Of a DNA stretch of 24,114 nucleotides, positions 2,293 to 21,100 are shown piece by piece. The stretch lies in IMG/VR virus record IMGVR_UViG_3300032305_001499, positions 1-24,114 of that record; one strand, written 5' to 3'. Numbering within the stretch: the stretch's first letter is position 1; each line of letters begins with the position of its first letter. The position numbers were made by a program, and so were the translations under genes. The DNA comes from a virus. Its lineage: Duplodnaviria; Caudoviricetes. Under the pieces are notes generated by a model that worked only from the letters and a program-made list of their open reading frames with translations, was not told the DNA's origin and made no database searches.

Positions 2293-5200
2293 ATGGCAAC
2301 AGCACAAGCAAATCAAAAAGTTTTTGTATCACCTGGAGTATATACATCTGAAACGGACCTTTCGTTCGTAGCACAGAGTGTCGGTGTTACAACCTTAGGG
2401 TTGGTCGGGGAAACAATTAAAGGCCCTGCATTCGAACCTGTTTTTATAACTAACTACGACGAGTTCCAAGCATATTTTGGTGGAACGGAACCAGTAAAAT
2501 TTGTAAACACACAAATTCCAAAATATGAGGCGGCGTACATCGCCAAGTCATACTTACAACAATCTAACCAATTGTTTGTTACGAGAGTATTAGGTTTGTC
2601 AGGATATGACGCGGGTCCGTCTTGGAGTATTAGAGTTACTGCCAACGTTGACCCATTAACTATTGGTATCGTAGCTCCAACGGGAGGTACAGTATTCAAC
2701 GCAACATTCACAGGGGCTACAGGTTCTACTACAATTGAGTTTGTGGGAGGGTCATTACCTAATGATATTCAAGTTAACTTAAATAACCAATACAGATTAT
2801 CTGATGGTAGTACATCAACTTATAACGATGATTTCAATAGTAATTTAAGTAATATTATTGACACCCCATCTTTATCTGCAACAACAGTCGCGTTTTATGG
2901 TTCAATACCATCACCTGATTATTGGAGTTTGGTTAGTCAATATTCAAACCAACTTAATGTTTTTGGTTCTGAATCTAACAATTTAGATACTAACGATTTA
3001 AGTTCAGACGCTAACGACCCTTGGTACTACGCAACATTTAGTAATGACGCAAATCTAAACAACAATTATACAGGATATTCATTCTACTATAATGTGTCAT
3101 CATTAACCGATAACGGTAATGGAGAATTTATAGGTCAAATTACAGGTGAAGTTTTTAGTTTCACAGGAACAGCTTATACTGAGTACAATAACATGGTTAT
3201 TGCAACTTTACGTTCAAGAGGTATCTCGTTGTATTCAAATGATGCAAACCTTGGTCAACATGGACCTGTTTATGAAGTTAGTGGACTTACTGATGTAACA
3301 TTAGTTGCATCGGGAGAATACTCAGGTATAACTGATTCACCATTTGAAGGATTCTTATTATCAGGTATTACTAAAGACGGTGATAATTTCTCATTTGAAA
3401 CATCATTATCTGCAGCATCACCTAAATACATAACTAAAGTATTAGGAACTGATAACTTTGGAAAATCAAGAAACGAAGTTCCTTTGTTTGTTGAAGAGAT
3501 TTATCCGAGTTCATTATCTTACGCTTACAACCAAGGATATATCAAAGGTATCAATCCTGAGTTAATTGCGTTAGAGGATGCTAGAAGTGAAAACTCACAA
3601 TCAATCGCATACAAAGTTGAAAAATATCAATCACCTGAAACTCCTTTCTTAGTATCTGAGTTAAGAGGTAATAAAGTTTACAGATTATTTAAATTCATTT
3701 CAATCTCTGATGGAGATTCTGCGAATGTTGAGGTTAAGATTTCTATTGCTAACTTATCATTCAATAATATGACTTTTGATGTGTTAGTAAGAAACTTCTT
3801 TGATACGGATGCAAACCCTGTTGTTATTGAAAAATTCACTAACTGTAATATGGACCCAGGTTCTAACAACTTTGTGGCTAAGAAAATTGGTTCATCAAAC
3901 GGTGAATACGCTTTAATATCTAAATATATAATGATTGAATTAGCTGATGAAGCTCCAATTGATGCAATTCCTTGTGGATTCTACGGATACACACAAAGAG
4001 AATATGAATCAACTGCGAACATTTCACCAGTACCACAATTCAAAACAAAATATTATTTCCCAGGTGAGGTTATTTATAACCCTCCATTTGGAACAACCGC
4101 TAACGCAACTGAATCTGCGGGAGATATTGTTAGAAGAAGTTATTTAGGATTCTCAAGTCAATTTGGTATTGATGAATCATTCTTAACTTTTAAAGGTAGA
4201 CAAAACCCTGTAAATTGGGTTAACTCAGCATTACCTATTGAAGGTCAAGCTTGGAACTATTTAAGTAGAGGTTTCCACATGGACTCAGGAGCTACTGTAG
4301 TAACAATCTCTAACTCATACTTATCAAGTGGTCAAACAGCTTTCGAGTGTGGTGTTGCGGATTTCAGATTCGACCCTGAAACTCAAGAGAACCCTTACTA
4401 CTTCATCTACTCAAGAAAATATACATTATGTTTTGCAGGTGGATTTGACGGATGGGATGTTTATAGAGAATTCAGAACCAACCAAGATAGATTCCAATTA
4501 GGTTCATCAGGTTATTTAGCGGGAGCATCAGCTTCTACAAGATATCCAACAGCGACAGGTCAAGGTTTATTCAAGAGAATTGTTGTAGCTAACAATACTC
4601 AAGATTTTGCTAACACCGATTACTACGCTTACTTACTTGGTATATTAACATTCGGTAATCCTGAAGCAACAAACATTAACGTGTTCGCAACTTCATCAAT
4701 TGATTATGTTAACAACTCAAACCTTGTTGAAGAAGCTATCGATATGGTACAATATTCAAGAGCTGACTCTGTGTATATCGCAACAACTCCTGACTACTTA
4801 ATGTACACTCCAGATGGAACTAACTCTTTAGATATCATCTACCCACAAGAGGCGGTTGATAACTTAGATAATACAGGAATTGACTCTAACTACACTGCAA
4901 CTTACTACCCATGGATTTTAGTAAGAGATACTGTGAACAACACACAAATCTACTTACCTCCAACAGGTGAAGTTGTAAGAAACTTAGCGTTGACAGATAA
5001 CATTGCGTTCCCATGGTTCGCATCGGCGGGTTACACAAGAGGTCTTGTAAACTCTATCAAAGCGAGAACTAAATTGACTCAAGAAGATAGAGACACACTT
5101 TACCAAGGTAGAATTAACCCTATTGCAACTTTCTCTGATGTAGGTACTGTAATTTGGGGTAACAAAACGTTACAAGTTGCTGACTCAGCACTTAACAGAT

Positions 5201-5505
5201 TGAATGTAAGAAGATTATTACTTCAAGCTCGTAAGTTGATTTCAGCTGTAGCGGTAAGATTATTGTTTGAACAAAACGACCAAATCGTTAGACAACAATT
5301 CTTAGACAGTGTTAACCCAATCTTAGATTCAATCAGAAGAGACAGAGGTTTATACGATTTCCGTGTAACAGTTTCTTCAACACCTGAAGACTTAGACAGA
5401 AACACATTAGTAGGAAAAATCTACTTAAAACCAACGAAAGCATTAGAATTCATCGACATTGAATTCTTCATTACTCCAACAGGAGCTTCGTTCGAGAATA
5501 TTTAA
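2293..5505 (+). CDS. Contractile tail sheath protein (T4 gp18-like)
   Basis: N-terminal SPGVYTSETDLS; C-terminal WFASAGYTRG, RDTLYQGRINPI, VIWGNKTL, LNVRRLL, LFEQND, KPTKALEFI sheath signatures. Confidence 0.97.
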   Translation: MATAQANQKVFVSPGVYTSETDLSFVAQSVGVTTLGLVGETIKGPAFEPVFITNYDEFQAYFGGTEPVKFVNTQIPKYEAAYIAKSYLQQSNQLFVTRVLGLSGYDAGPSWSIRVTANVDPLTIGIVAPTGGTVFNATFTGATGSTTIEFVGGSLPNDIQVNLNNQYRLSDGSTSTYNDDFNSNLSNIIDTPSLSATTVAFYGSIPSPDYWSLVSQYSNQLNVFGSESNNLDTNDLSSDANDPWYYATFSNDANLNNNYTGYSFYYNVSSLTDNGNGEFIGQITGEVFSFTGTAYTEYNNMVIATLRSRGISLYSNDANLGQHGPVYEVSGLTDVTLVASGEYSGITDSPFEGFLLSGITKDGDNFSFETSLSAASPKYITKVLGTDNFGKSRNEVPLFVEEIYPSSLSYAYNQGYIKGINPELIALEDARSENSQSIAYKVEKYQSPETPFLVSELRGNKVYRLFKFISISDGDSANVEVKISIANLSFNNMTFDVLVRNFFDTDANPVVIEKFTNCNMDPGSNNFVAKKIGSSNGEYALISKYIMIELADEAPIDAIPCGFYGYTQREYESTANISPVPQFKTKYYFPGEVIYNPPFGTTANATESAGDIVRRSYLGFSSQFGIDESFLTFKGRQNPVNWVNSALPIEGQAWNYLSRGFHMDSGATVVTISNSYLSSGQTAFECGVADFRFDPETQENPYYFIYSRKYTLCFAGGFDGWDVYREFRTNQDRFQLGSSGYLAGASASTRYPTATGQGLFKRIVVANNTQDFANTDYYAYLLGILTFGNPEATNINVFATSSIDYVNNSNLVEEAIDMVQYSRADSVYIATTPDYLMYTPDGTNSLDIIYPQEAVDNLDNTGIDSNYTATYYPWILVRDTVNNTQIYLPPTGEVVRNLALTDNIAFPWFASAGYTRGLVNSIKARTKLTQEDRDTLYQGRINPIATFSDVGTVIWGNKTLQVADSALNRLNVRRLLLQARKLISAVAVRLLFEQNDQIVRQQFLDSVNPILDSIRRDRGLYDFRVTVSSTPEDLDRNTLVGKIYLKPTKALEFIDIEFFITPTGASFENI

Positions 5506-6463: not shown

Positions 6464-6952
6464 ATGGCTGATTTACTGATGAAAATGCCGATTCCTTATG
6501 AACCGAAACGTCAAAACCGATTCATTTTAAGGTTTCCATCAAGTTTAGGTATTAATGAATGGTTCGTAGAAAGTACTTCGAGACCACACATTACAATTGC
6601 TGCGACTGAAATTCCATTCTTGAACACTTCGACTTACGTTGCAGGTAGATTCAACTGGCAAACAATTAACGTTGTCTTTAGAGACCCAATTGGACCGTCT
6701 GCCGCACAAGCTCTTATGGAGTGGGTTCGTTTACACGCCGAGTCAGTGACAGGTCGTATGGGATATGCTGCAGGGTACAAAAAAGATATTGACCTTGAGA
6801 TGTTAGACCCAACAGGTGTTGTTGTTGAGAAATGGATTATGTATGGTACATTCTTAACAGATGTTAACTTTAATGCGTTGGCTTACAACACAGATGGTTT
6901 AGCGACAATTGCAGCAACTCTGAGAATGGACAGATGTGTGTTAGTTTACTAA
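6464..6952 (+). CDS. Tail tube protein (T4 gp19-like)
   Basis: 162 aa; EPKRQNRF..., IPFLN..YVAGRFNWQTINVVFRD, LMEW, YKKDIDLEMLDPTG.VVEKW.MYGTF, ATLRMD match the gp19 tube fold; downstream of sheath. Confidence 0.93.
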   Translation: MADLLMKMPIPYEPKRQNRFILRFPSSLGINEWFVESTSRPHITIAATEIPFLNTSTYVAGRFNWQTINVVFRDPIGPSAAQALMEWVRLHAESVTGRMGYAAGYKKDIDLEMLDPTGVVVEKWIMYGTFLTDVNFNALAYNTDGLATIAATLRMDRCVLVY

Positions 6953-6984: not shown

Positions 6985-7022
6985 TTAACCGTAAAGCACA
7001 TAAACTTTACGGTTAATTTTTT
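6985..7022 (+). terminator. Intrinsic terminator / attenuator hairpin between tube and chaperone
   Basis: Perfect 12-bp stem TTAACCGTAAAG / CTTTACGGTTAA, 8-nt loop, then T6 ending 2 nt before ATG 7025. Confidence 0.75.
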
Positions 7023-7024
7023 AT

Positions 7025-7768
7025 ATGGATAATCAATCAAGAGAATACGGTCAAGCAAACTTTTCGCTTCCCCATGACGTGGTACCATTACCATCTCAAG
7101 GTACATTCTACAAAAACAAAAAGAAATCAATTAAAGTCGGGTATCTGACTGCAACTGATGAGAACTTATTAATGGCGGGTGGTGACGATATGACACCAAA
7201 TCTTTTAAGAACAAAGATTTACGAACCAGACTTACGTGTTGAGGACATGTTGGAAGGTGATGTTGAGGCGGTCTTAATTTTCTTAAGGAATACTGCGTTT
7301 GGACCTGAAATGGAACTTACATTGACGGACCCTTCAACAAGAAAACCTTTCAAAACGACAGTACTACTTGACCAATTAACTATTCTACAAGGTCAACAAC
7401 CTAACGAAGACGGAACATTTACAACGACGTTACCAAAATCTCAAACAACTGTTAAGTTAAAACCAATGACTTACGGTGAAATCTTAGAAAATCAAAGAGC
7501 TGCGGATTTATATCCTGCGGGAAGAGTAGTTCCTAAAGTTACTTTAAGATTACAAAAAGAAATTATTGAGGCAAACGGGTCTACCGATAAAGGCGAAATC
7601 GCCAAATTTATAGAATCAATGCCAATTGCGGATTCAAAATTCATAAGAAAATTTATGGAAGATAATGAACCAAGGTTGGATATGAAACGAATTGTTATGA
7701 CCCCATCAGGAGAAAGACTTACAGTTAATGTAGGTTTCGGGGTCGACTTTTTTCGTCCTTTCTTCTGA
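7025..7768 (+). CDS. Tail/baseplate-hub assembly chaperone (T4 gp26-like)
   Basis: PHDVVPLPSQG.FY..IKVGYLTATDENLL..GDVEAVLIFLRNTAFG resembles gp26-family proteins, with an internal second LPKS..VKLKPMT unit. It occupies the canonical chaperone slot between tube and tape measure. Confidence 0.8.
   Translation: MDNQSREYGQANFSLPHDVVPLPSQGTFYKNKKKSIKVGYLTATDENLLMAGGDDMTPNLLRTKIYEPDLRVEDMLEGDVEAVLIFLRNTAFGPEMELTLTDPSTRKPFKTTVLLDQLTILQGQQPNEDGTFTTTLPKSQTTVKLKPMTYGEILENQRAADLYPAGRVVPKVTLRLQKEIIEANGSTDKGEIAKFIESMPIADSKFIRKFMEDNEPRLDMKRIVMTPSGERLTVNVGFGVDFFRPFF
7748..7757 (+). other. Candidate programmed +1 frameshift site TTT_TTT_CGT_C
   Basis: In-frame Phe-Phe-Arg near the chaperone stop. tRNA-Phe can re-pair UUU to UUC in the +1 frame, which stays open to 7907. 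Confidence 0.7.
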
Positions 7769-7907
7769 TTATAGAAAAAGTCAGTTAGACGAGTTCTACT
7801 ACTTAAACACATTATTAAAGATAAGTTATCAAGATTTTTTAATAATGCCGTTGTTCACAAGAAAGTATCTTTTAGATAAATGGATTGAAGATAATAAAAA
7901 GGACTGA
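7755..7907 (+). CDS. Frameshift extension of the tail assembly chaperone (gp51-like / gpGT-type C-terminal part)
   Basis: Frame open 7734-7907 after TAG 7731-7733, with no ATG/GTG/TTG before 7845. Encodes VLSSDYRKSQLDEFYYLNTLLKISYQDFLIMPLFTRKYLLDKWIEDNKKD*. Confidence 0.75.
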   Translation, partial: VLSSDYRKSQLDEFYYLNTLLKISYQDFLIMPLFTRKYLLDKWIEDNKKD

Positions 7908-7922
7908 AAACTCAGTCCTTTT
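7897..7922. terminator. Possibly bidirectional intrinsic terminator hairpin
   Basis: AAAAGGACTGA-AAAC-TCAGTCCTTTT; the 5' arm contains the TGA stop (7905-7907) of the extension frame. Confidence 0.75.
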
Positions 7923-7953: not shown

Positions 7954-9807
7954 ATGGCAGAAACAAACGATAAGACCGCAGGTCAAATGGGTGAAGAGTT
8001 GAAAAACGCGGTAAAATTACCTAACGTACAAGAATTTGCTGATGCGTACGAACGAATAAGTTCTAGTGCTCGAATGGTTAATAATACTTTTGGCCAAAGT
8101 AGAGAAAGAATTGTTGAACTACAAACTGCGATTGCTGATACAACACCTGGCATCCTTCGAATGGGTGGTAGTTTTGGGGATGTTAGTAAATCAATGCAAG
8201 AGATTGCAGAAGCGTCAAAAAGAAACGTTGTAGCAAGCTCTGAAGATATTGAAAAACTCTACGCATCATCCAAGGTATTAGATATGAGTGTTCGTGAAAT
8301 TTCCGACGCCTTCCTAAATGTTGGTGTTGGTATCGAACAAGTGGGTACACAGTTAGAAGAGTCTGTTAACTATGTTAGAAGTATTGGTGGAAACACCAAA
8401 CAAGTAATGGATAGTGTTAGAAGTAACATGGACCAAATGAATCGTTACCAATTTGAAGGTGGTGTTCAAGGTCTAACTAAGATGGCAGCTCAAGCATCTA
8501 TGTTAAGGTTTGACATGTCTAACACATTTGCTTTAGCTGAAAAAGTTTTAGACCCTGAAGGAGCGGTTAATATGGCATCCGCATTCCAAAGACTTGGTGT
8601 TTCTGCAGGAGCCTTAGCCGACCCATTCGCTTTGATGAATGCATCAATAAATGACCCATCAGGACTACAAGATGGTTTAGCGAACATATCAAAACAATTT
8701 ACATATTTTGACGAAAAAACTAAAACATTTAAGATAAATCCTCAAGGTGTATTAACACTTAGGGAGATGGAAAAAGAGGCAGGGCTTGCTTCAGGTTCGT
8801 TATCTAAAATGGGATTAGCCGCAGCAGAATTAGATATGAGAATTTCTGATATCAATAAAGCTGGTCTTACAATTGCAAGTGAAGAGGACAAACAATATTT
8901 GGCAAATATTGCAACAATGCAAGATGGTAAGTACAAAGTTACTTTGGAAGATGGAACTAAAAAAGAATTAGCTGAGTTAACCCAACCTGAGTTTGATAAA
9001 TTAATTGAACAACAAAAAAATGCACCTAAAACTATGGAAGATATTGCGAAATCTCAATTATCTTATAGTGAATCAAGTGCAGGAGACCTTAAAGCTATAA
9101 GGTCCGCTATTGTTGGCGGAGCTGTAACACAAAGAGATTTACTAAAAGGTGGAGAGGCCGCTAGAAATTTATCAACAAACTTTACAGGGGCAGCCTCAGA
9201 AAACTTTAGTAACCCACAAAAAGTTAGAGATACTATAACCGAATCTTTTGGGGACATTAAACAGTTGTTTAAAGATATTAATAATAAAGACATTAAAACC
9301 ACTGACGCAGCCTCAATGTATCTAGAAAAATTAGGTCAACAAGGTCTTAAAATTGAAGAAGGGTTTAAACAAGGTATGATAAAAACTTTAGAAGAAACTC
9401 GTAAAAAAACGACTGGTACAACGGGAGTTGACGAGGTTGCTAAAGAATTTTTGGATAAGATGTTAGGTGGTGTAAAATCTGAACAAATTAAAGGTGTTAA
9501 AGACGGTAACAAACCAATATCGTCACTAATTGAAGGTACCAAAGCCTCCGAAGTCCAACAGAGTGTTGCAAACAACAATCCATTTGCTGGCGGGGGAGGA
9601 ACTTCAAAGGTTAATGTTGATGGTGGATTTAAAATTGATATTAATTTCACAGGAGGTGCTTCAGAATTAACAGCCGCACAAAAAGAACAAGTGACTAAAA
9701 TGTTAATCGAAAAAATGAATAGTGCTGAAATGCAACAATACATGGTTAGTGTTACAGGTAAAGATAACCCAACAAAAGCTCCTTCAGGAAAAACTGTAAG
9801 TAGATAA
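7954..9807 (+). CDS. Tail tape measure protein
   Basis: 617 aa, Ala/Gln/Lys/Glu/Met-rich helical composition, follows the chaperone; size similar to T4 gp29. Confidence 0.8.
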   Translation: MAETNDKTAGQMGEELKNAVKLPNVQEFADAYERISSSARMVNNTFGQSRERIVELQTAIADTTPGILRMGGSFGDVSKSMQEIAEASKRNVVASSEDIEKLYASSKVLDMSVREISDAFLNVGVGIEQVGTQLEESVNYVRSIGGNTKQVMDSVRSNMDQMNRYQFEGGVQGLTKMAAQASMLRFDMSNTFALAEKVLDPEGAVNMASAFQRLGVSAGALADPFALMNASINDPSGLQDGLANISKQFTYFDEKTKTFKINPQGVLTLREMEKEAGLASGSLSKMGLAAAELDMRISDINKAGLTIASEEDKQYLANIATMQDGKYKVTLEDGTKKELAELTQPEFDKLIEQQKNAPKTMEDIAKSQLSYSESSAGDLKAIRSAIVGGAVTQRDLLKGGEAARNLSTNFTGAASENFSNPQKVRDTITESFGDIKQLFKDINNKDIKTTDAASMYLEKLGQQGLKIEEGFKQGMIKTLEETRKKTTGTTGVDEVAKEFLDKMLGGVKSEQIKGVKDGNKPISSLIEGTKASEVQQSVANNNPFAGGGGTSKVNVDGGFKIDINFTGGASELTAAQKEQVTKMLIEKMNSAEMQQYMVSVTGKDNPTKAPSGKTVSR

Positions 9808-9849: not shown

Positions 9850-12800
9850 ATGGGGAGTCCTTTAGATTTTATTAGCTCGGATGGTTTCAGAAAGAAACTT
9901 ATAACAAGGAACTTAACGCCTTATGCTAAGTCCCCTAACCGACCTACGCTTCCTATTGATACAGAATACATTCAATCAGACACATCAGTACAAGATAGTC
10001 CTGACCAATTAATTGATACTCCAACATTTGCGAATCAACTATACCCTTTAAACCAATATGGTAATGAAGGTGGTTACGAGCAAGTTCCTGACCCAGGCGC
10101 GTTGTTAAATACCAAATCAAACGAAGGTGAGTATGGATTTCAAGACGCAAATATTGTAGACCAAGCCTTACCTGAATCTCAAAGATGGAAACCTCTTAAC
10201 GTATTTTCTAACGGTAATCAACTACCATTAGACAGTGCTCCATTTTTTGATTCTTTAAATAGACCACAGACAACCAATACATCAAACAACCAACCGTACC
10301 CAACAACGTTTGTACCGTCAACATATTCTCCACTATCAATATTACTTTCAAGTGACCCAGGAGGAAGTAATGGTTTATTGAGTCAAGATTCATTTATCGT
10401 TAAATTAGGTGCGGAAACACTTAGAAGAGAGTTTGAAGCAAGAATTGCCGCTCAGATTAGACAAGATACTATTGACAGAGCTAACATTTTAAACATTAAT
10501 AGTGGGACTGACATAGTTAACATTTTGTCAGGCGTAGTTCCATTAATTGAGCCAAACTATACAATTACTGTCACAGCAAACCCAATACTTGCTGCCGCCA
10601 ACTTTGCATTAAGATTAGGTGGAAGTATCTTACCTGTATCTCCAATACCTGGTTCATACTTTGACCCAAATGTTAATCCAGGTCCACAGACCACAATACA
10701 ACAACTGTCTAGTGCATTTATACGTAGTGGGGTTGGTAAATTCTTTAATAGACTTATGGGTGGTGGAGACACTGGTTCTCAAATCATGTTTAATAACATG
10801 GGTGCAGGACAAAGGTCAAGACTGTTCAAAAACATTGACTACAATAGATACAAACCAAACTTCCCAAGAACGTTTATCGATAGAGCCGCTGGTGTATTAA
10901 CAGGTACTCAATCTGATGACAGTAATTTCTATATAGGTAATATTACATCTAATCCTTCACAAGTTTTTTCACCAACTGGTGAGGTACCTGTAAATGCTTA
11001 TGGTGTTGAACAACAGTCACCTGTTTATGGTCCATCAGAGTTAGCCCAACTTTATGAAGGACCAAGTAAAGATATTAGATTAGGTGCAAACGGACCTACA
11101 TATTCTAATGGTGGTGGTATTGAAGGTGGATTCACATGGGTATCGCCAAAATACAAAGGTAATGCTGGTAAGAAAGTTGGACTTGGTGGAGAAGTTACAA
11201 ACCAAGACGAAGACTTTAAACCTTCATCATACAATACGACTGAGTCAACTGAAAGAACTTTTAAACAAGGTTCAATCTTAGACCAAACACAAAGAATTAT
11301 TGATAGCCAACCTCAGGGGGGTAAAAGATTACAACACGTTGGTAATGCAATTGACCAAGTGAGTAAAGTATTCCATGATGGATATAAAGAAATGACTAAG
11401 GGTTCAAGAGTTTATAGATACGAAGGAGCCATTGGACAAGAAGTTGGTACTGAATATTGTAGAGTATTTGCTAAAGACGTACCTTACTTACAATACAACG
11501 ACCTTCAAAAGGTTGATGGTGTAACGGTTAATGGTCGAAGATTTGCGGATTCAGTATTTGATAACACATATAATCTTAATATCGCACCTAACAAAATGGA
11601 AGGTGGACAATCTTCAACTAACCTAATCAACGGTGGTCCAGGGGGACAAGGATATGCCAAAAAGTATATGTTCTCATTAGAGAACTTAGCATGGAGAACA
11701 TCAAGTACTCCAGGGTTCTCTGTATCGGATTTAGCGGTGTGTGAGAGAGGTCCAAATGGTGGTAGAGTAATGTGGTTCGCTCCTTACGGATTGACCTTCA
11801 GTGAGAGTGTATCGACCTCGTGGAACCAATCAGACTTCTTGGGTAGACCCGAACCAATCTATACGTATAAAAATACCTCAAGAACAGGTTCATTATCGTG
11901 GAAAATCGTAGTTGACCATCCATCGGTATTAAATGTTATTGTTGATAAGGTATTGGGTAACGAAACAAATAGAGTTAGAATTGATAGTATTATTGATTCG
12001 TTCTTTGCGGGTTGTAGAAAATACGACTTGTATGAACTTGCTAAGAAATATTATACAATAAAGCCAGGTGAGTTGTCTTACTTACAAGAAGTGATTTCTT
12101 CTAAAGATATGACTAAGGAAGAGTTAATTTTTGCTAAACAAACAATTCAGACAGGTAAGGATGCTCCAACAGCGGGGGCAACTACTACCTCACAATCAAC
12201 TTTAAATTCTGAAGATTTCTTTAAAAAGTATGTTCAGATAGGTGGTTATTTTGGTAACGACTTTCCAAAACCTAAGACATCACCAAACTATACTGAGGAG
12301 TATACAAGATATACATCACCAGGAAACAAAAAAATATATACCGATAAATCAAACGGAGCTCAATTAGGAACGTTTTTTAATGCGGTAGTAACACCAAATT
12401 ATAATACTTTAAAAGAATTGACTGTTGAGTTAGATAAACAATTAACTCAGTATCCGACAGGTAACATCACAATGGTGATTGATTCAAGTTGTTCCGCACC
12501 TGCAACAAAGGCGTATAACGTTGAGTTATCTAAAAGGAGAATCGAATCCGTGATTAAGTTTTTTAATGAAACAGAAACACTTAAAAAATATATTACGGCT
12601 CAAAGATTAATTCTTAAACCAGGAACTGCTGCGGGTGAAAACGCTCAAGTACAACAATTTGATAGTGAGAAGGGTACATATATTGGTGGACAAACAGTTA
12701 GTTGTACGGATAATGACCCAAGTGCGTCTGGAGGAGACACAAAGGCCGACTCTAAAGAAATTTTCACAACTACAGCCATGGCTTGTAGAAGAGCTTATAT

Positions 12801-14868
12801 TGCCTCAATTACAGGAACACTAACCGCTCCTATACCTACTCCACCACCCGAAACTCAAGAAGTTTTAGTTGGTAACGTGGTAACAAGTACTGTAAAAGTA
12901 CCTGTTGTAGAACAAGTTAGAAAAGAAAGAAATAACGTAACTAAAAGAGTGTTAAGGTCTTTATTGTCGGAATGTGACTACTTTGAAACAATCAAAGCGG
13001 AAACTCCTATGGTTTATGACAACTTAAAAGATAAGTTGAAATTTTTCCAACCAGCGTTCCACTCAACAACACCTGAAGGATTGAACTCTCGTCTTACATT
13101 CTTACAACAATGTATGAGACCTGGTGATACAATACCTACAGTAAAACAAAACACACCACAAAGTAAACCAACATTGGAATACAACAATGCGATTAACACC
13201 GCGTTTGGTGCACCTCCTGTGTTAGTGTTAAGAATTGGGGATTTTTATAATACAAAAATCATCCCAACCTCATTATCTCTTCAATACGAACAATTAGATA
13301 TCAACCCTGAAGGTATTGGTATCCAACCTATGATTGCTAACGTAACGATGGCATTCAACTTTGTTGGAGGTAGTGGGTTAAAAGAATCCGTTGATAAGTT
13401 ACAAAATGCGTTAACATTCAATTATTATGCAAATACTGAAATGTACGATGACAGGTCGGATGTTACCGCTCAAGAAGATTTCTTAAAAATCCTTGATAGT
13501 GAATTCTTAAAACAAGATTCGTTACTTAGTCCACCTACTTTAAATCAGGCAACACCAAACGCAGGTCAGAATAATAATTCAACTGTAGGTACTATTATAA
13601 CTAATGTTATTAATGACCAAGGAGAAACTGGTACATTAAATTATTCGGATTTCATGGTTCAAGTGGTTAATGATACACAAACATATTTTACAACAGTTGT
13701 TAATAAAACTAAAGAAACTGTTAATCAATATAATAATGCGGTTCGTCAACAATGGATGTTAGAACGTTCATATACTCAAGGTAATTTATCTGTTGCAGAC
13801 CCTGCGGTTGTTTTGTTTGGTAAACCAAGTAGTATTGAAAAACGTTTTGATGAGATATTCTCTGATTTTGAAAAAAATATTAATAATGGTAGTGACCCAT
13901 TCATAGAGTTTATTAGTTTAAAAAATAAAGATTTTTCTCCAAAATTGATTCGTACTGTTAAAGAGAACTATTTTAATTTTGTTAAGAACAAAAGAAGTTC
14001 GTTTCAAAATGCCATATCAAAAATCACCCAAGAGTTAACAACCGCGGAACAAGGTTACTTACAAACATTAGGTAAAGTAAATCTAATCACATTCGAAGGT
14101 GAGACAGATAAAGGTACTGATGGATACCAAGGTAAGACAGGAAACGTTAGGGTGTATGTGACAACTGGTACGGATAAAGTATCAACAAATTCAAAAGCTG
14201 CGAACACGTTCTTAGAATTACAAGATGATATTAAAAAAATTCAAACAAATATTGGTGAATTTAATACCGTTATATGGAGTGATAGTAGTTTTACATATGG
14301 TAAAGGTAACTATACAGGTAAATTAGTTTTTGAAACTGCAACAAATGGTATCTCTAAAGCAGTTACTGTTGAGAATGTATTCTTACCTTTTAGTACAAAC
14401 ACATTGATTGTAGACAACAAAGCATTTAAGAGACAATATATGATAGTATCTGACGATGTTTTAGATGAAAAGAAATATCAAACATTTAAAGATGCGTTAA
14501 TAAGTAATGTTCAAGGTAACAAATCTTTAATTGGTGACGGAGCTGATAATATTGAAGCTGTGTTTGACGCTTATTGGATAACCCAAGCCAAACCAGTATT
14601 TGCAGAAGAAAACAATATAACTAAGGCCTTTATTGACAATTTAGAAAAAACTAAATTAAAAGACTTTTTAAAGTATACACCTTTTGATAAGAAGGAAAGA
14701 GTGCTTGATTATACGATTGAAAATGGTGCAAGTAATGATAAGAAGAAAGCACAAGAAAAAATGATTAAAGGTTTGGGAGCAACAACTAACTCAAACACAA
14801 ATAATAACACTTGGAATAACGAAAACGGAGCAACAGGTGCATATACATCAAAAGCAAAATTAAATTAA
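9850..14868 (+). CDS. Large baseplate protein: tube-initiator-like (gp48/gp54/CIS-tube) fold with an OmpA-like domain
   Basis: Tube-initiator-like segments at about 11764-11922 (WFAPYGLTFSESVSTSWNQSDFLGRPEPIYTYKNTSRTGSLSW) and 13213-13371 (PPVLVLRIGDF..PTSLSLQYE..PMIANVTMAF). OmpA-like YNVELSKRRIESV..GE..CRRAYI at about 12241-12810. Follows tape measure, precedes LysM gene. Confidence 0.7.
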   Translation: MGSPLDFISSDGFRKKLITRNLTPYAKSPNRPTLPIDTEYIQSDTSVQDSPDQLIDTPTFANQLYPLNQYGNEGGYEQVPDPGALLNTKSNEGEYGFQDANIVDQALPESQRWKPLNVFSNGNQLPLDSAPFFDSLNRPQTTNTSNNQPYPTTFVPSTYSPLSILLSSDPGGSNGLLSQDSFIVKLGAETLRREFEARIAAQIRQDTIDRANILNINSGTDIVNILSGVVPLIEPNYTITVTANPILAAANFALRLGGSILPVSPIPGSYFDPNVNPGPQTTIQQLSSAFIRSGVGKFFNRLMGGGDTGSQIMFNNMGAGQRSRLFKNIDYNRYKPNFPRTFIDRAAGVLTGTQSDDSNFYIGNITSNPSQVFSPTGEVPVNAYGVEQQSPVYGPSELAQLYEGPSKDIRLGANGPTYSNGGGIEGGFTWVSPKYKGNAGKKVGLGGEVTNQDEDFKPSSYNTTESTERTFKQGSILDQTQRIIDSQPQGGKRLQHVGNAIDQVSKVFHDGYKEMTKGSRVYRYEGAIGQEVGTEYCRVFAKDVPYLQYNDLQKVDGVTVNGRRFADSVFDNTYNLNIAPNKMEGGQSSTNLINGGPGGQGYAKKYMFSLENLAWRTSSTPGFSVSDLAVCERGPNGGRVMWFAPYGLTFSESVSTSWNQSDFLGRPEPIYTYKNTSRTGSLSWKIVVDHPSVLNVIVDKVLGNETNRVRIDSIIDSFFAGCRKYDLYELAKKYYTIKPGELSYLQEVISSKDMTKEELIFAKQTIQTGKDAPTAGATTTSQSTLNSEDFFKKYVQIGGYFGNDFPKPKTSPNYTEEYTRYTSPGNKKIYTDKSNGAQLGTFFNAVVTPNYNTLKELTVELDKQLTQYPTGNITMVIDSSCSAPATKAYNVELSKRRIESVIKFFNETETLKKYITAQRLILKPGTAAGENAQVQQFDSEKGTYIGGQTVSCTDNDPSASGGDTKADSKEIFTTTAMACRRAYIASITGTLTAPIPTPPPETQEVLVGNVVTSTVKVPVVEQVRKERNNVTKRVLRSLLSECDYFETIKAETPMVYDNLKDKLKFFQPAFHSTTPEGLNSRLTFLQQCMRPGDTIPTVKQNTPQSKPTLEYNNAINTAFGAPPVLVLRIGDFYNTKIIPTSLSLQYEQLDINPEGIGIQPMIANVTMAFNFVGGSGLKESVDKLQNALTFNYYANTEMYDDRSDVTAQEDFLKILDSEFLKQDSLLSPPTLNQATPNAGQNNNSTVGTIITNVINDQGETGTLNYSDFMVQVVNDTQTYFTTVVNKTKETVNQYNNAVRQQWMLERSYTQGNLSVADPAVVLFGKPSSIEKRFDEIFSDFEKNINNGSDPFIEFISLKNKDFSPKLIRTVKENYFNFVKNKRSSFQNAISKITQELTTAEQGYLQTLGKVNLITFEGETDKGTDGYQGKTGNVRVYVTTGTDKVSTNSKAANTFLELQDDIKKIQTNIGEFNTVIWSDSSFTYGKGNYTGKLVFETATNGISKAVTVENVFLPFSTNTLIVDNKAFKRQYMIVSDDVLDEKKYQTFKDALISNVQGNKSLIGDGADNIEAVFDAYWITQAKPVFAEENNITKAFIDNLEKTKLKDFLKYTPFDKKERVLDYTIENGASNDKKKAQEKMIKGLGATTNSNTNNNTWNNENGATGAYTSKAKLN

Positions 14869-15191
14869 TGGCATTTCAATATTGGAACCGATATAGTGAT
14901 TTTTTAATAAACGGAGAACAGACCGTTGTTCCTTACGTGCCCATTCCTCAAAAACCAACTGACAAGGCTTACATATATAAAGTGGCTCAGAGTAGGTTAG
15001 ATAAGGTATCACAAGAGTATTATAATTCACCTTACTTTAATTGGTTAATACTTCAGGCGAATCCTCAGTTCGGTGGTCTTGAAAACAATATATATGACGG
15101 TGCTATATTGATTATTCCTTTCCCATTACTACCATCTCTACAGGATTATAAAGCGGCGTTAGAAAATCATTTTTATTATTATGGTAGGTAA
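14868..15191 (+). CDS. LysM-like baseplate protein (T4 gp53 / P2 gpX-like)
   Basis: YKVAQSRLDKVSQEYYNSPYFNWLILQANP..IYDGAILIIP is a typical LysM/gpX pattern; TAATG-coupled to the upstream gene. Confidence 0.85.
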   Translation: MAFQYWNRYSDFLINGEQTVVPYVPIPQKPTDKAYIYKVAQSRLDKVSQEYYNSPYFNWLILQANPQFGGLENNIYDGAILIIPFPLLPSLQDYKAALENHFYYYGR

Positions 15192-18100
15192 TTTAGGACC
15201 AGACAACAGTGGGAGAGTTTATGTAGAGTTTGATTACAATAATCTTATTGTGGTTGACCCTAACAAAACCATTGACGCGTTAGGAAATATTAGAGAAAGA
15301 TTGGTTGACCATGAAAATTTGGTTATGTATGCTAATCTTGAGGCGGAAGTATTACCAAGAACAAAATTAGCGGTTGGTATTAGTCCTGAGGATAGTGGGT
15401 TAAGAACCATTTCAGTTGCTAAAATGAATTTCCTAAAACCAAGTAAAAACAATTTCTTAGGAACAGGTTATTATGATGAGTTAACGGGACAAAACACTAC
15501 AAAGTTTGATGGTACTAATCAGCCAGCAGAACTTGGTCAACAAACAGCCGCGGGTTCAAAACCATATATTTTAAACACGGTAGCCAATGAATTAAATGTT
15601 ATGGACAATGGGTTATTAGGTATAACTCAAATTAACATAACAACCAATTCTTCGTTTATCCCATCTGTTGAAATGCAGTTGGAAGATGTACAAGGTAAAG
15701 CTTTATTCCAATTAGGTAATAACTCACCGTACTCCGCATTCTTCAATTTACCATACCCACCATTCTATCTTACACTTAAAGGATTTTACGGACAGGCGGT
15801 TAGATACCAATTAAATTTGGAAAAATTCCACGCGACATTCAACTCGTTTAGTGGTAATTACCAAGTCAGATTAACATTCAAAGGGTATAAGTTCAACATA
15901 TTAAATGAGGTGGCTATGGGTCACCTATTAGCCGCACCACACATGTACTCTCAAAGGTTTAACTTTGGTGCGACACCAGTAACACCACAACAAAGTAATA
16001 AATCTACCGAATCACAATCTAAAACTCAAGCGGCTATTGGTTCTAATAATCCAAATAGTAGTGACGCAGTGGTAACTGAATTAGTTACTGAAAGAGGGTA
16101 TCAAAAAATAGTTGAAGTTTATAGTGAGTATAAAGCCAAAGGTTTAATACCTGCGGATTTACCTGAATTAACATTAGCTCAATTAATGGTTAAGTTAGAT
16201 AATTTTGAAAAACAAATTATGGACTCTTTCCCTAAAACAGATGTGGAGTCTTTAACTAACATTAGAAATTATAAAGGAATTTTAACACAATACTTCACAA
16301 ACGTTAGAGGACCTTCAAACAGTTCTTGGTTTGGAACGTATTTAAATCCACAACCACTTATTTTATTTGGTGGTGACAAAGTTTATGCTTTTAAAAATTT
16401 AGACCAAGGTGCTAAAGATACTGCGGTTTCTTTATTACAAGGAAATATTAAAAAATATAACGATGCTTTGGCTGCAAATCCTACGGTAGGAACTGCGGGT
16501 AAAACACCAATCCCAAATCCAATTAAGTATGAGATGATTCTAAAGGACAACATGTCTGAATCACAAATTGATTGGGTTGCAACTACAACAACTCAAACAG
16601 GATTCCCAAATCCTACGAAAGAACAGATTGAAAGAGTGATTTCACAATATGGTGGATTTACTAAAACTATTAACGAGACAATTACTAACGGTAAAAAAAG
16701 TTATACTGAAAATAAAGAAAGGTATTTTATTTTTGAAGGCAATGGAAGATTCGATTCAACTATTTCATCTTTAGAAACTCAGGCAAATAAAAAATTATCT
16801 GAATACGAATCTAAAATAACTGCTGACTTATTAAAAAAGATTGAAGATAAAGACACAGGTCTTGGATTCAGCCCTACAGTTAGGAATATGATTGCGGTTA
16901 TTATGGCATCCGCAGAAGCTTTCATTAGATTGTTAGATGATGTACACACCAACGCTTGGAATGTGAAGTACGACCCTGTAAGAAAGAGTGCAATTTTAGA
17001 TAACCCATCATCGGCACCTAGTAGTGAAACAAGAGACAATGTTGTTTATCGTGAAGGTTCTTTGTTGGGAAATACGGCCGCTGAGAATTCTCAAATTCCT
17101 GTTTACCCTTGGCCTCAATATTTTGTTGAAACACCTGACGATAAGAAAGGTAGATTCCAATTAAAATATATTGGAGACCCAACTGAAATTGATAGAACAC
17201 AAGGTGGTAATTATTCCAAATGGCCTGAGGTAGAATTTGTGGAAGAATATATGAAAGGACTTACTCAAAAATTTCAAAACCCTATCGCACCACAACCATT
17301 AGATAACCAAAGAGATACAAACGTTATTAATATAAACGCAATTGAGTTTCCATCGGCAGGTATTGCATATGCCAATAAAGAAGAAGTAAAGTTTTTCTAT
17401 GAAATATGGGAAAGACAATTTTTAACATCTCACTACTCGGGATTAGTCAGAGCCAATTTAAATCAGATTAATGATTTAATTAAACTTAATATTGAGACGG
17501 AGGTTAATAATGTTAAAGACGGTTTAGGGGTTAGTTCACCATATATCACATTTAAATTAAAAAATTACGGATTAAACGCTTCCAACTACCCAACGTTCTT
17601 AAATAACATTTCGAATATGGGTACGGGTAGGGCTTACCAAGATTATATTAGGGACTTTTTCGTAACTCCATATATTAAGAGTTTGACTGAAAATTCATTC
17701 AGTCTTTTGAAAACTAGTGATATTGGTAAGATACCTCAAGTAACGACATCATCAGACGCTCTTAGAGCTTTAATAACTAACGCATCTAACGAACCGTTAG
17801 TTGTTGATACGTTACCATATACCGATGCAACGTGGTGTATTAATAATTTAAACCAAGCCCAAAGTGCTGCAGGTAACCAAGTTTATGATACTAAAAAGAG
17901 TTTAACTATTTTTGAACCAAGAAAGATTATTGCTAATTTTAACGATGTAAACAACTATAAATTTAACAGACCTGTTACAGATTTTTCATATTTACAATCA
18001 AAAAATCCAAGTATTGTAGCGGCGGCTTTAGGGTCAGGATTGTTTCCAGGGTCAATTCCAGGGTTGTCAACGTTTTATATAACAAGAACACCTGATAATT

Positions 18101-21100
18101 TTGTTGCAACAGAAGGGTATTGTGACGTGGTTACACCAACAGGGTTCTTAGGACCAAGAACAACCACTTCAATGTTAAACACTCCTTACTTTATCAATGC
18201 GATTCAGATTGGGGTAGATAACTTTAAAAAGAAAGAGAACTATCCATACGTTCAAGCTGCTTATTTATTTCTTAATTCATTACCACTTGCAACCTTAAGA
18301 GAAAAATATAAGACTCTTTCAAATGACGTTACAAGTGATTTAGATTATATTGCCTCGACATTTAAAAAGTTTGGCGCTATTCATAAAATACCGTACGCTT
18401 GGATTTTAAAATACGGTTCTATATGGCACAGATATAAAAAATATAAAGATAGTGGTGTGGACATCCTAACAAATGTTTGGAAAGACTTTAATTACACAAC
18501 AAACTATAACCCAATAACCAATCAAACAACAACACCGTATACTTTCAAATATGGAGGTGTTGATAGAAATATTGTATTACAAAGCGAAACAACAACTGAC
18601 GTTAATATGCAAGTTGGATTTTATCCTAAACTGATTAACGATTTTAATATTTTTTATAATGGATATGACTTATATAGTGGATACACAAATACTGAGATTC
18701 AAGACAGTGTGAATGGTGGTATGAAAATGTATAACTTTTTAGAGTCAAACATCAATAGTGCCAAACAAGGAGATAAGAACTTAAGATTAAATACTTGGTC
18801 AATATTATTACCCGATTTAACTCCTGAAGCGGACGTTGATTGTAATCCTAAAAATAATACAAAGAGTTCTGAGTACTTTGTTGTACCATCTTTTGGAACA
18901 TTTTTTAACCAAACGGTAGGTTCTTGTTTAACAGGGGCAACAACATCACCTGGCGCTAAAGTACCACTTAGTTCAAATAGTAGTGTGTATAATGGTTCTG
19001 TAAGATGTTTATGGTCAGCTCCAAACTACGGATATTTCGATAGTACACAAATTGCGTACCCAAGCCCTGAATCGTATTTAACTTTAATTAATACAGGTAA
19101 AACACAAAGTCCCGTTCATTTTTTAAATACCAATGTGTATTCCAAGATTGAAGAAACATTTTCTGTGTTTGAAAAAAGAATATTAGATAACTTTGAACAA
19201 GAATTTTTAAATTTCTGTAAACCAATTACTGATAATCAAAATGGTAATGAAACGGTTACTTATGGACAAAGTCCTGTTAACAACACAAGCAACTTTAGAA
19301 ACTTCCAATCATTATTTAAGACTTTGATGATAGTACCTGCGCAGGCCGAAGGAGTTAGTGAAAAAACTTATTTTGAAAATACAATCGATAAACAATATCA
19401 ATCATTCCAAACAGGGATTCAATCTTTTATGGAATATGATATCTTATTAAGATACGGAAATCCTTCAAATTATAATAGAAGAATTTTTGATTCTTATATT
19501 TCTTTCAATGGACCAGCGGTTGTTACAGACCCAATAACTTTTAACCCATACGTAAAAGGTAGTTTACCAACTAGAGGGGGAGGAGTTACGTTAACTCAAT
19601 CTAAATTAGCAAACCCAAGGGCGTGGTTCGCTTTAGAAACGGAGGTAGGATTCTCAACAATACCAAATGTTGTATATACTTCAAATGGTTCATACATTAC
19701 TGATTTCTTTGTAGATAACAATATTGAATTTACTGAACAGAATGTTGTTTTGTTGGCACAAATCATTAAGATGTATGCAACACAAAAAGTTAAACAACCA
19801 ACAATTACTGTTTCACAATTTAAGAACCAAATAATACAATACCTTGGAGTTGAAACTGAGTTGCAGAATAATTTCTTAAACGGGGTTTTAACGGGGTTAA
19901 ATAAAGCACTTCCATCACAACAACAAGTACCTCAACAAACAATTCAAAGTTCGATAACGGGAGAGCAAAGTAAGGTTGAAAACTATGAAGTCTTTAAAGC
20001 GTTAAACGATAAGTGGATTGCGGGAGGAGACTATACCAACAAAACTTTGTTTGAAGACATAATGTTTTTAGACCGAGCGTCAAGAAATATCGGAGACACA
20101 ATATTGATTGATATCTTTGACTTAAAAAGTATGTTTAATGAAAAGTCATTGAATCAAGCAATGAGTGTTTACACGTTCATTAGTGGTATTCTTATTAAGA
20201 ATAACTTTAATGTGATGAACTTACCTGCCTATGTTAATTTTTATAATGTACAAGATGTTGATGGTACAACAATACCAAAAGCAGAAGGTTCATTAGATTT
20301 TGCCGACAGTTTATGGGGAACTTATTTAGATGTTGATTACAGAAAATCAGGACCTAAAATGGTTTGTTTTTATGCAGGTAAACCATCTCAATATTTAGAC
20401 TTACCAAAAGGTAATTTTAAATTTAGAGACGATGCGTTTGAAATGAGAAGAGCATCTGAGAATCCTCTATTGGAAAACCAACAAGGCAAAAAAGATTGGG
20501 CGGTTTCTAACAAATGTGTTGGATTTACTGTAGACCTTGGTATTAGAAGTCAAAATGTTTTCTTTTCATTCTCGGTATCTCAGGACAATGGTACTGCAAC
20601 ATCTGAGTCAATTAATACTCAGTTGAACATGGTTGACCAAGCATCAGGTAGACAAACCGCTACACAAAATAATAGTTTATATAACCTATATAAACAAAGA
20701 AGTTATAAATGTACGGTTGTATCATTAGGTAACGCTTTAATACAGCCAACAATGTATTTCAACCTTAGACACGTACCAATGTTTAATGGACCGTATATGA
20801 TTCAGGATGTTCAACATTCAATTCAAGCGGGTAACTTCCAAACAACATTTACGGGTGTTAGACAAGGGGTATTTGATTTACCTGCCATAGACAGTTTCTT
20901 ACAGAGTATTAACCAAAACCTTATAACTAAATTAGAAGAACTTCTTAAAGTTAATAAGGATAGTGTTACAGTTTCAGGAACTACCAATACGGTTAAGAGT
21001 ACAACACTACCTCAAAAGGCTGACAATACTCTTGATACACCAAATGCGTGTAAGAGTAATGTACTTAAAACTTTTGCGGATGCTGGATTTGGAGACGGGG

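Follow-up and report, generated by a model that had tools for sequence, protein, structure and literature searches.

A conserved +1 frameshift predicted in the gene for the tail assembly chaperone in a freshwater phage family, with a covarying hairpin upstream of the slip site

We analysed the tail assembly chaperone locus in positions 1 to 24,114 of IMG/VR virus record IMGVR_UViG_3300032305_001499. This stretch of 24,114 nucleotides (nt; hereafter the window) is a 24-kb fragment from the tail region of a myophage, and its phage is likely a large freshwater one. Comparison with related loci makes it very probable that one message gives rise to two tail assembly chaperones through a +1 slip at UUU UUU C. 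Most ribosomes would stop at the TGA at 7766, releasing a protein of 247 amino acids (aa), and a minority would move forward by one base at UUU UUU C into a conserved 50-residue module resembling the C-terminus of T4 gp51, giving 293 aa. The case is built on how the frames are related, on the conservation of UUU-C, on a +1 frame that is under selection and has no conserved start codon, and on a hairpin with covarying bases. We hold the programmed frameshift itself to be highly probable, and give the hairpin's role in it about an even chance. An earlier sequence-only reading of this DNA had proposed the 293-aa fusion of a gp26-like domain and a gp51-C-like module by +1 frameshifting, a prediction that the comparative evidence supports well; it overlooked the conserved 5′ hairpin, the part with the greatest novelty.

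The chaperone open reading frame (ORF) at 7025–7768 encodes 247 aa and ends GAC TTT TTT CGT CCT TTC TTC TGA (7745–7768). Its −1 frame closes after 11 codons (the median is 11 among the loci compared) at the TAG at 7786–7788. The +1 frame is open from 7734 to 7907, with 50 residues counted from 7755, and holds no ATG, GTG or TTG from its opening to 15 codons past the slip, the first Met being at 7845; its stop, the TGA at 7905–7907, lies inside a terminator-like hairpin (7897–7922). The sequence-only reading had described the frames in the same way. The predicted fusion comprises 243+50 = 293 aa with the junction VDFF/VLSS, and whichever of the two Phe codons the ribosome slips on in the window, the protein would be identical. 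The locus is flanked upstream by a tail tube gene and downstream by a tape measure gene (the latter by synteny only), as in loci of the G/GT type; the counterpart of the 617-aa ORF at 7954–9807 is annotated as tape measure in four records (L224, L227, L228 and L230). The earlier suggestion of a G/GT equivalent holds for gene position and for a conserved overlapping frame that lacks a conserved start. It does not extend to the slip itself, because the −1 slip on an X XXY YYZ heptamer that characterizes G/GT loci has no counterpart at the window locus.

In window ORFs of at least 150 aa, an in-frame TTT followed by CG is found a single time in 236 TTT codons. Among the best 80 of 329 confirmed IMG/VR homologues, which were selected by protein and are 77–100% identical (36 distinct), TTTTTTCG and the open +1 frame are kept in 80/80. 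The site is therefore not a product of chance. A scan for the exact 21-base motif gave an estimated ~1,800 viral contig stretches, and in the 109 distinct loci sampled from them the upstream proteins were 47–99% identical to that of the window. Given that an exact-motif scan selects for the motif, we repeated the scan with a pattern that permits every synonymous codon (~2,100 viral contig stretches estimated, 120 loci sampled). The second Phe was TTT in 120/120 loci, against a background of 77% TTT, and the Arg was CGN in 120/120, against a background in which AGA and AGG make up ~87% of the Arg codons in the gene. The nucleotide-level conservation of TTT_CGN that the sequence-only reading had looked to is thus present in a codon-blind sample. 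The first Phe, in the E site, was TTT in 116 loci and TTC in four; the TTC TTT CG variants belong to three dissimilar sequence types, and all retain the hairpin and the extension. CGT is used 2.8 times per 1000 codons in the window. As separate observations, an in-frame TTT followed by C is mildly under-represented relative to ATT, GTT or CTT followed by C in the long ORFs of the window and of two relatives, G002 and G005 (p 0.03, 0.006 and 0.025), consistent with avoidance of a shift-prone context; in four DNA runs, summed contig depth has a sharp peak at 7738–7778, as would be expected if these words were common to many phages, and this gives no copy number.

Selection on the +1 frame was measured between the 0-frame stop and Met 7845 in 64 disjoint sister pairs, as the ratio of nonsynonymous to synonymous differences (pN/pS) on closer pairs, since Jukes–Cantor-corrected dN/dS was saturated. 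pN/pS was 0.20 (0.17–0.23) in the +1 frame, and 1.27 and 1.07 in the two other frames. For reference, the value was 0.22 for the N-terminal chaperone domain (TAC-N) and 1.75 for the +1 frame upstream of the slip. The 25 codons that separate the 0-frame stop from Met 7845 are therefore under purifying selection, the outcome that the sequence-only reading had sought there. Met 7845 is replaced by a non-start codon in 20/95 homologues.

The TAC-N of the window spans positions 12–232 of phrog_150, T4 gp26 positions 14–235 and T4 gp51 positions 13–280, that is, ~50 positions more; pairwise BLAST of TAC-N against T4 gp26 and gp51 gave nothing significant. The family phrog_634 matches 4/75 extensions (best E 0.002) and also the last 49 residues of T4 gp51, and a profile built from 16 distant extensions placed gp51 third among 2,320 ORFs (E 0.09). 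In the ESM Atlas (score 0.93), 25/30 named matches fell in clusters of which 10–33% of the members bear PF28602 Gp51_C. These results are suggestive of a relation between the extension and the gp51 C-terminal module. The likeness to gp51 that the sequence-only reading had noted is thus weak by hidden Markov model and supported by the ESM Atlas, while the likeness to GpE-type proteins that it had also claimed was not supported, P2 GpE being absent among the nine Pfam families matched by 75 extensions. T4 uses two genes here, whereas the window has one gene and an overlapping frame.

The register is shared by a sister clade typified by Flavobacterium phage immuto, for which 80 loci were fetched with queries that stop before the C-terminus; after removal of 11 duplicates and four cut loci, all 65 distinct ones were in the +1 register. 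Their slip sequences were TTT TTT TGG (36), TTT CTT TGG (25), TTT CTA TGG (3) and TTT CTT TAC (1), and an A-site CGN was absent from 65/65. Given that CGN is specific to the clade of the window and the sister clade differs, the family-wide +1 signal would be an in-frame UUU followed by a pyrimidine (UUU-Y). In the window's clade, CGN may be explained by the C that re-pairing needs together with an Arg conserved in the protein. The likeness to influenza PA-X that the sequence-only reading had drawn therefore stands for UUU_C but, for CGN, applies to the window's clade only.

More distant homologues comprised 11 named records (one from each of 10 groups among 21 records, plus one further match) and 19 complete IMG/VR loci, of which 7/11 and 17/19, respectively, are in the +1 register. 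The cultured phages Mel-JY01, immuto, GXN1, HSE3, LIS04 and SP-15 (L223, L224, L225, L227, L228 and L230) carry unannotated +1 chaperone junctions. GXN1 and HSE3 read TTC TTT CGT C at the slip, L202–L212 and L215–L217 read TTC TTT TGG, and L201 reads TTT CTA. A query made from GXN1 retrieved no usable relatives. The other four named records, L226 (LR756511.1), L229, L231 and L232, are in the −1 register, three of them with T TTT TTC; L226 has a stable 3′ hairpin a few bases past the −1 site (L226:1895–1960, z −3.57). None of these four −1 loci has a frameshift annotation in its record. In the IMG/VR loci L214 and L218, TTT-Y is lost and the module lies in the other frame with an ATG right after the stop; there (L214:2227–2549, L218:2215–2510) the C-terminal module appears as a separate gene with an N-terminal addition, including FLG, that resembles the junction region.

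Immediately upstream of the slip site, positions 7699–7744 are predicted to form a hairpin that ends 3 nt before the E-site codon and 6 nt before the P-site UUU. Bases 7699–7704 pair with 7739–7744, enclosing a bulge of 9–10 nt and an inner stem (7714–7723/7729–7738). Codon choice is fixed at the synonymous position of two codons there: a Gly codon is GGG in 118/120 loci, against a background of 10%, and the Thr/Ala codon whose bases pair with it ends in C in 98%. In an alignment of 95 distinct, gap-free sequences, the 6-nt distance from stem to P site is fixed, with no insertions or deletions (indels). The five pairs 7700–7704/7739–7743 are maintained in 95/95, with a C-G to A-U double change in two; only two sequences alter the central G of the outer stem, and both alter its C partner too. 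Overall, 85.8% of cells were paired, compared with 77.1% after shuffling, where none of 500 shuffles reached the observed value; registers that were slid gave no more than 57.1% (n = 95). Of 861 pairs of third-position columns in the last 129 bases, the five that score highest by corrected mutual information belong without exception to the two helices, the inner-stem pairs 7717/7735, 7720/7732 and 7723/7729 ranking 1, 2 and 4. Compensatory changes in sister pairs numbered 29 on six helix pairs, one of which (7714/7738) had none, compared with 0.74 per control pair (1,320 controls). The hairpin region was 6 kcal/mol more stable than synonymous resamples in 30/30 of the sequences sampled, whereas 2.3 was not exceeded anywhere else along 600 bases in this test, so that the hairpin is the only strongly selected structure in the region scanned.

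Other signals around the slip were considered and set aside. The bulge at 7705–7713 is complementary to 7761–7769 in the window, which would allow a pseudoknot, and this pairing had no compensatory change in 95 sequences. As to a 3′ stimulatory structure, folds of 7755–7830 and 7760–7860 were unremarkable (z 0.76 and −1.60). Against the GGGG of the stem acting as an internal Shine–Dalgarno (SD) sequence, it covaries with CCCC, and SD sites are not used by these phages; such a role is therefore less likely. Rfam gave no match at gathering level. Within the bulge lies a conserved AGGAG-like word, for which there is no start codon at SD spacing; this word is also altered in the two sequences that carry the compensatory change in the stem.

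The relatives of the window are partial genomes, of ~300 kb by completeness estimates. A bS21 gene is present in 3/5 of them (in the window, itself a 24-kb fragment, it was looked for in the long ORFs only), and SD-like motifs precede 0/10, 2/87 and 3/148 long ORFs. Freshwater phages encoding bS21 are predicted to infect Bacteroidetes (PMC9723584), and Bacteroidota ribosomes ignore SD sites (PMC10798248). Given that the relatives have bS21 and lack SD sites, the host is likely a member of the Bacteroidota. Like the phages of that bS21 study, the relatives here are freshwater myoviruses of ~300 kb with bS21; the terms "frameshift" and "tail assembly" do not occur in its main text (PMC9723584). 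Relative G002 has a cluster of 22 tRNA genes at ~17.9–27.4 kb (L354–L355), including Arg(TCT) and Arg(ACG).

In the mechanism that we favour, the peptidyl-tRNA-Phe on 7751–7753 would move from UUU to UUC by re-pairing, perhaps with a tandem shift at the E-site UUU. The hairpin would refold behind the ribosome at the mRNA exit, in the position of an SD/anti-SD helix, and there push the ribosome to +1 or block −1; it may replace the prfB-type SD push in a Bacteroidota host that ignores SD sites. The long form would act as lambda gpGT or T4 gp51 does. For the Bacteroidota giant-phage family at large, we propose tentatively, as not quite an even prospect, that a natural 5′ refolding hairpin stimulates +1 slippage, sets its direction and replaces the SD push. 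Flanking structure would then set direction, the same Phe-Phe codons serving −1 slippage with a 3′ hairpin, as in L226.

The main rival to ribosomal slippage is slippage by RNA polymerase, in which the nascent hairpin, lying beside the RNA–DNA hybrid on GAC-U6, would cause some transcripts to lose one U and thereby encode the same 293 aa. The stem ends at 7744, and 7745–7753 (GAC plus six U) make nine bases, the length of the hybrid; a Roseiflexus insertion sequence undergoes forward realignment driven by stem-loops in the nascent RNA (PMC5009743), and the full T6 run is retained in 116/120 loci. However, the homopolymer is not conserved unbroken as in that type of system: it reads TTC TTT C in 4/120 loci, of three dissimilar types with hairpin and extension intact, and TTT CTA in 3/65 sister-clade loci and in L201. 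The constant feature is an in-frame UUU followed by a pyrimidine, as re-pairing of tRNA-Phe needs. Although the geometry fits, the broken-run variants therefore count against polymerase slippage, which we regard as improbable. The same variants bear on a Mu-like −2 slip of the ribosome on the U6 run, which would reach the identical frame with the product DFFFVLSS (294 aa). The UUU at 7751 can re-pair at 7749 in the window, but cognate re-pairing at −2 is impossible in TTC TTT CG (4/120), in TTC TTT TGG, in GXN1 and HSE3 and in the TTT CTN loci, including TTT CTA; +1 is therefore favoured, and the −2 slip is very improbable. An error of assembly in the T run would be a simpler account, since homopolymer runs are error-prone, and a search for longer proteins with the extension did return two single-contig fused forms (P0121 and P0122) among 7,999 scored candidates, one of them with the exact +1 junction. 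These fused forms are probably indel errors. The same split is found in 80/80 homologues, and Logan contigs, including those of other studies, from the 7/8 sequencing runs that cover the T6 run, one possibly the source of the window, had no indel in it; the RNA runs X15, X17 and X19 have such contigs across the slip site, which X16 did not cover. These are contigs and not raw reads, and cannot reveal rare variants or prove transcription. An assembly error is already refuted by the conservation, and we give it a negligible probability.

The 50-codon frame might also be a separate small gene, translated from its own start or by re-initiation, with no fusion made. Cultured-phage records annotate a small separate ORF, L214 and L218 resemble separate genes, and 86/95 homologues carry some ATG, GTG or TTG ahead of the slip in the +1 frame, in most cases a TTG from TTT GGG. 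These candidates are scattered, however, and the main one needs a Phe codon that stands at background frequency (72/95); the window itself has no start before Met 7845. The expectation of the sequence-only reading, that homologues would not supply a start of their own, is thus borne out for a conserved start and contradicted for scattered ones. pN/pS in the +1 frame is 1.75 upstream of the slip as against 0.20 for the 25 codons before the Met, and a separate gene would leave the fixed TTT-CG unexplained; we consider it very unlikely. A last alternative competes with the hairpin part of the favoured explanation only: the frameshift is real, and the hairpin does another job, such as inducing a pause, affecting how the RNA is stabilized or processed, or offering a phage protein a binding site at the bulge. 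In favour of this, the bulge, which has no partner to pair with, is conserved, chaperone and PA-X frameshifts of low level are stated not to require a stimulator (PMC5009743), and distant +1 lineages do not share the hairpin in this form. Against it, no other structure in the last 600 nt scanned is strongly selected, and the hairpin keeps a fixed distance from the P site. We place this alternative just short of an even chance.

Several points weigh against the frameshift, or against the hairpin's part in it. The support comes from sequence comparison. Because the amino acids G[VA][DE]FFRPFF-stop are set in the pattern of the 120-locus scan, it is blind to homologues that altered them, and its loci are mutually related; queries without the C-terminus, used to escape this selection, gave 26 loci (10 duplicates, two cut), and TTT TTT CGN and the +1 register were present in 14/14 distinct ones. 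Start codons upstream of the slip in most homologues also count against the frameshift, as does direct hhalign of the extension against T4 gp51, which was not significant (E 0.7). A close relative encodes tRNA-Arg(ACG), so that a slow A-site CGU is not established. For the hairpin, per-pair tests on supported tree branches were underpowered, and among the results listed none reached p 0.05; a hairpin model searched against 40 sources matched its own clade alone. Folds at distant loci had p < 0.05, uncorrected, in just 4/20, one of these a −1 locus, and the 5′ structure of the immuto-like clade is weaker and different (−3.5 kcal/mol, 29/30, against −2.3 in one control window). In 70S assays, an upstream hairpin was effective only at a stop codon without release factor 2 (PMC6321510). 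Finally, no homologue was found in GTDB genome contigs and hence no prophage, so the Bacteroidota host, although likely, is inferred.

A chaperone site of this kind has a precedent. In the HF1 group of haloviruses, a +1 shift of the tail chaperone at TTT-CGC has been proposed, citing influenza and amalgaviruses (PMC7230728), and HSTV-2 is listed as +1 (PMC5009743, PMC8211752). As here, two chaperone ORFs lie between tail tube and tape measure with +1 at TTT-CGn, and the HF1 case, also a proposal, was likened to PA-X; the novelty that the sequence-only reading saw in a PA-X-like +1 signal is accordingly smaller than claimed (PMC7230728). The haloviruses differ in their archaeal hosts and in comprising a handful of genomes, as against ~2,100 estimated stretches here, and the available text on them mentions no 5′ hairpin. 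Influenza A PA-X has UCC_UUU_CGU, for which re-pairing from UUU to UUC has been argued, and shares a P-site UUU_C with CGN next (PMC3498833). Unlike PA-X, the present site has UUU or UUC in place of UCC in the E site, a free N, a CGN that is not family-wide, a bacterial ribosome and a 5′ hairpin. Lambda gpG/gpGT and Mu have the same gene position and the same logic of short and long chaperones, but shift by −1 and −2, and no sequence homology is shown (PMC5009743, PMC3498833).

The window protein and T4 gp26/gp51 belong to one family, PF12322, and in both the long form has ~50 extra C-terminal residues; in T4, however, gp26 and gp51 come from two separate genes. Vladimirov 2022 concerns T4-like tail chaperone genes by its title, and is said to name genes 26 and 51. 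PolyT −1 signals in T4-like TAC-N genes are attributed in PMC12846349 to Vladimirov, Gautam and Davidson 2022 (PMID 34826709). Engineered upstream hairpins stimulate +1 frameshifting in yeast and in 70S assays (PMC3639245, PMC6321510), and these, like the internal SD of prfB, put a duplex immediately 5′ to the E site at a +1 shift, as the present hairpin does (PMC3639245, PMC6321510, PMC10798248). A 2016 review describes 5′ stem-loop stimulation of +1 from synthetic constructs only, calls its working mysterious, and gives a natural 5′ stem-loop in the bypassing of T4 gene 60. Whereas the published 5′-hairpin effects on +1 come from synthetic constructs, and the natural SARS hairpin attenuates −1, the hairpin here is natural, covarying and bulged, and lies at a sense-codon site.

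In a literature search confined to main texts and including few subscription journals, no account of this +1 site in a bacterial phage came up, nor any of a chaperone frameshift with a 5′ hairpin. We conclude from the comparisons that the predicted frameshift is real and conserved, that its +1 UUU-C site alone is moderately novel, and that the new part worth testing is a covarying 5′ hairpin in a probably SD-blind host. The result adds a predicted hidden protein to an abundant family of uncultured phages; it does the same for cultured phages in whose records the extension is either missing or entered as a hypothetical gene of its own. With it, gp26 and gp51 of T4 would be tied to the scheme of frameshifting seen in other tailed phages, and the locus is a natural candidate for 5′ stem-loop stimulation of +1 with compensatory variants ready-made.

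Table 1 Coordinates of the chaperone locus and neighbouring features in the window (pLDDT, predicted local distance difference test)
Feature	Coordinates	Strand	Basis or remark
Tail sheath gene	2293–5505		
Tail tube gene, upstream context	6464..6952	+	phrog_4542 E 2e-23; PF06841 weak
Terminator-like hairpin in the gap between tail tube and chaperone	6985..7016	+	Consensus scan only
Short chaperone TAC-N, gp26-like, 247 aa	7025..7768	+	PF12322 29.4 bits (cut-off 24.5); phrog_150 positions 12–232
Outer stem, 5′ arm, GACCCC	7699..7704	+	Partner is 7739–7744
Conserved 5′ bulge (AUCAGGAGA)	7705..7713	+	GGA third position 98% conserved
Inner stem-loop, 7714–7723 with 7729–7738	7714..7738	+	Third-position covariation
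Outer stem, 3′ arm, GGGGUC	7739..7744	+	Ends 6 nt 5′ of the P-site codon; Gly codon GGG in 118/120
Slip site UUU UUU CGU C	7748..7757	+	Likely P-site UUU is 7751–7753, re-pairing to UUC
+1-frame extension TAC-C, 50 aa, gp51-C-like, predicted three helices	7755..7907	+	pN/pS 0.20; pLDDT 93.9; Atlas clusters with PF28602 Gp51_C
0-frame stop TGA	7766..7768	+	Sequence
Terminator-like hairpin overlapping the +1 stop	7897..7922	+	−14.8 kcal/mol, z −5.75; consensus scan
Probable tape measure gene, 617 aa, context	7954..9807	+	Position only; no family match

Elsewhere in the window no tRNA genes were found. Two very long ORFs, 9850–14868 (1,672 aa) and 15181–22941 (2,586 aa), are almost without family match, giving only a weak metallopeptidase match and one TIG domain. 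Upstream of the tail sheath gene, 557–970 encodes a protein like gp82 of Mycobacterium phage L5 (PF25735, E 4e-29). The word GATC is wholly missing from the window, G002 and G005, with 0 found against 65, 346 and 508 expected from shorter words, which probably reflects avoidance of a restriction or methylation site. Further findings in G002 come from L354:650–2062, L359:4633–6168 and L357: a thymidylate synthase matched in several stretches, possibly through an insertion, a superoxide dismutase domain in a protein of 512 aa, and a cluster of sugar-nucleotide genes.

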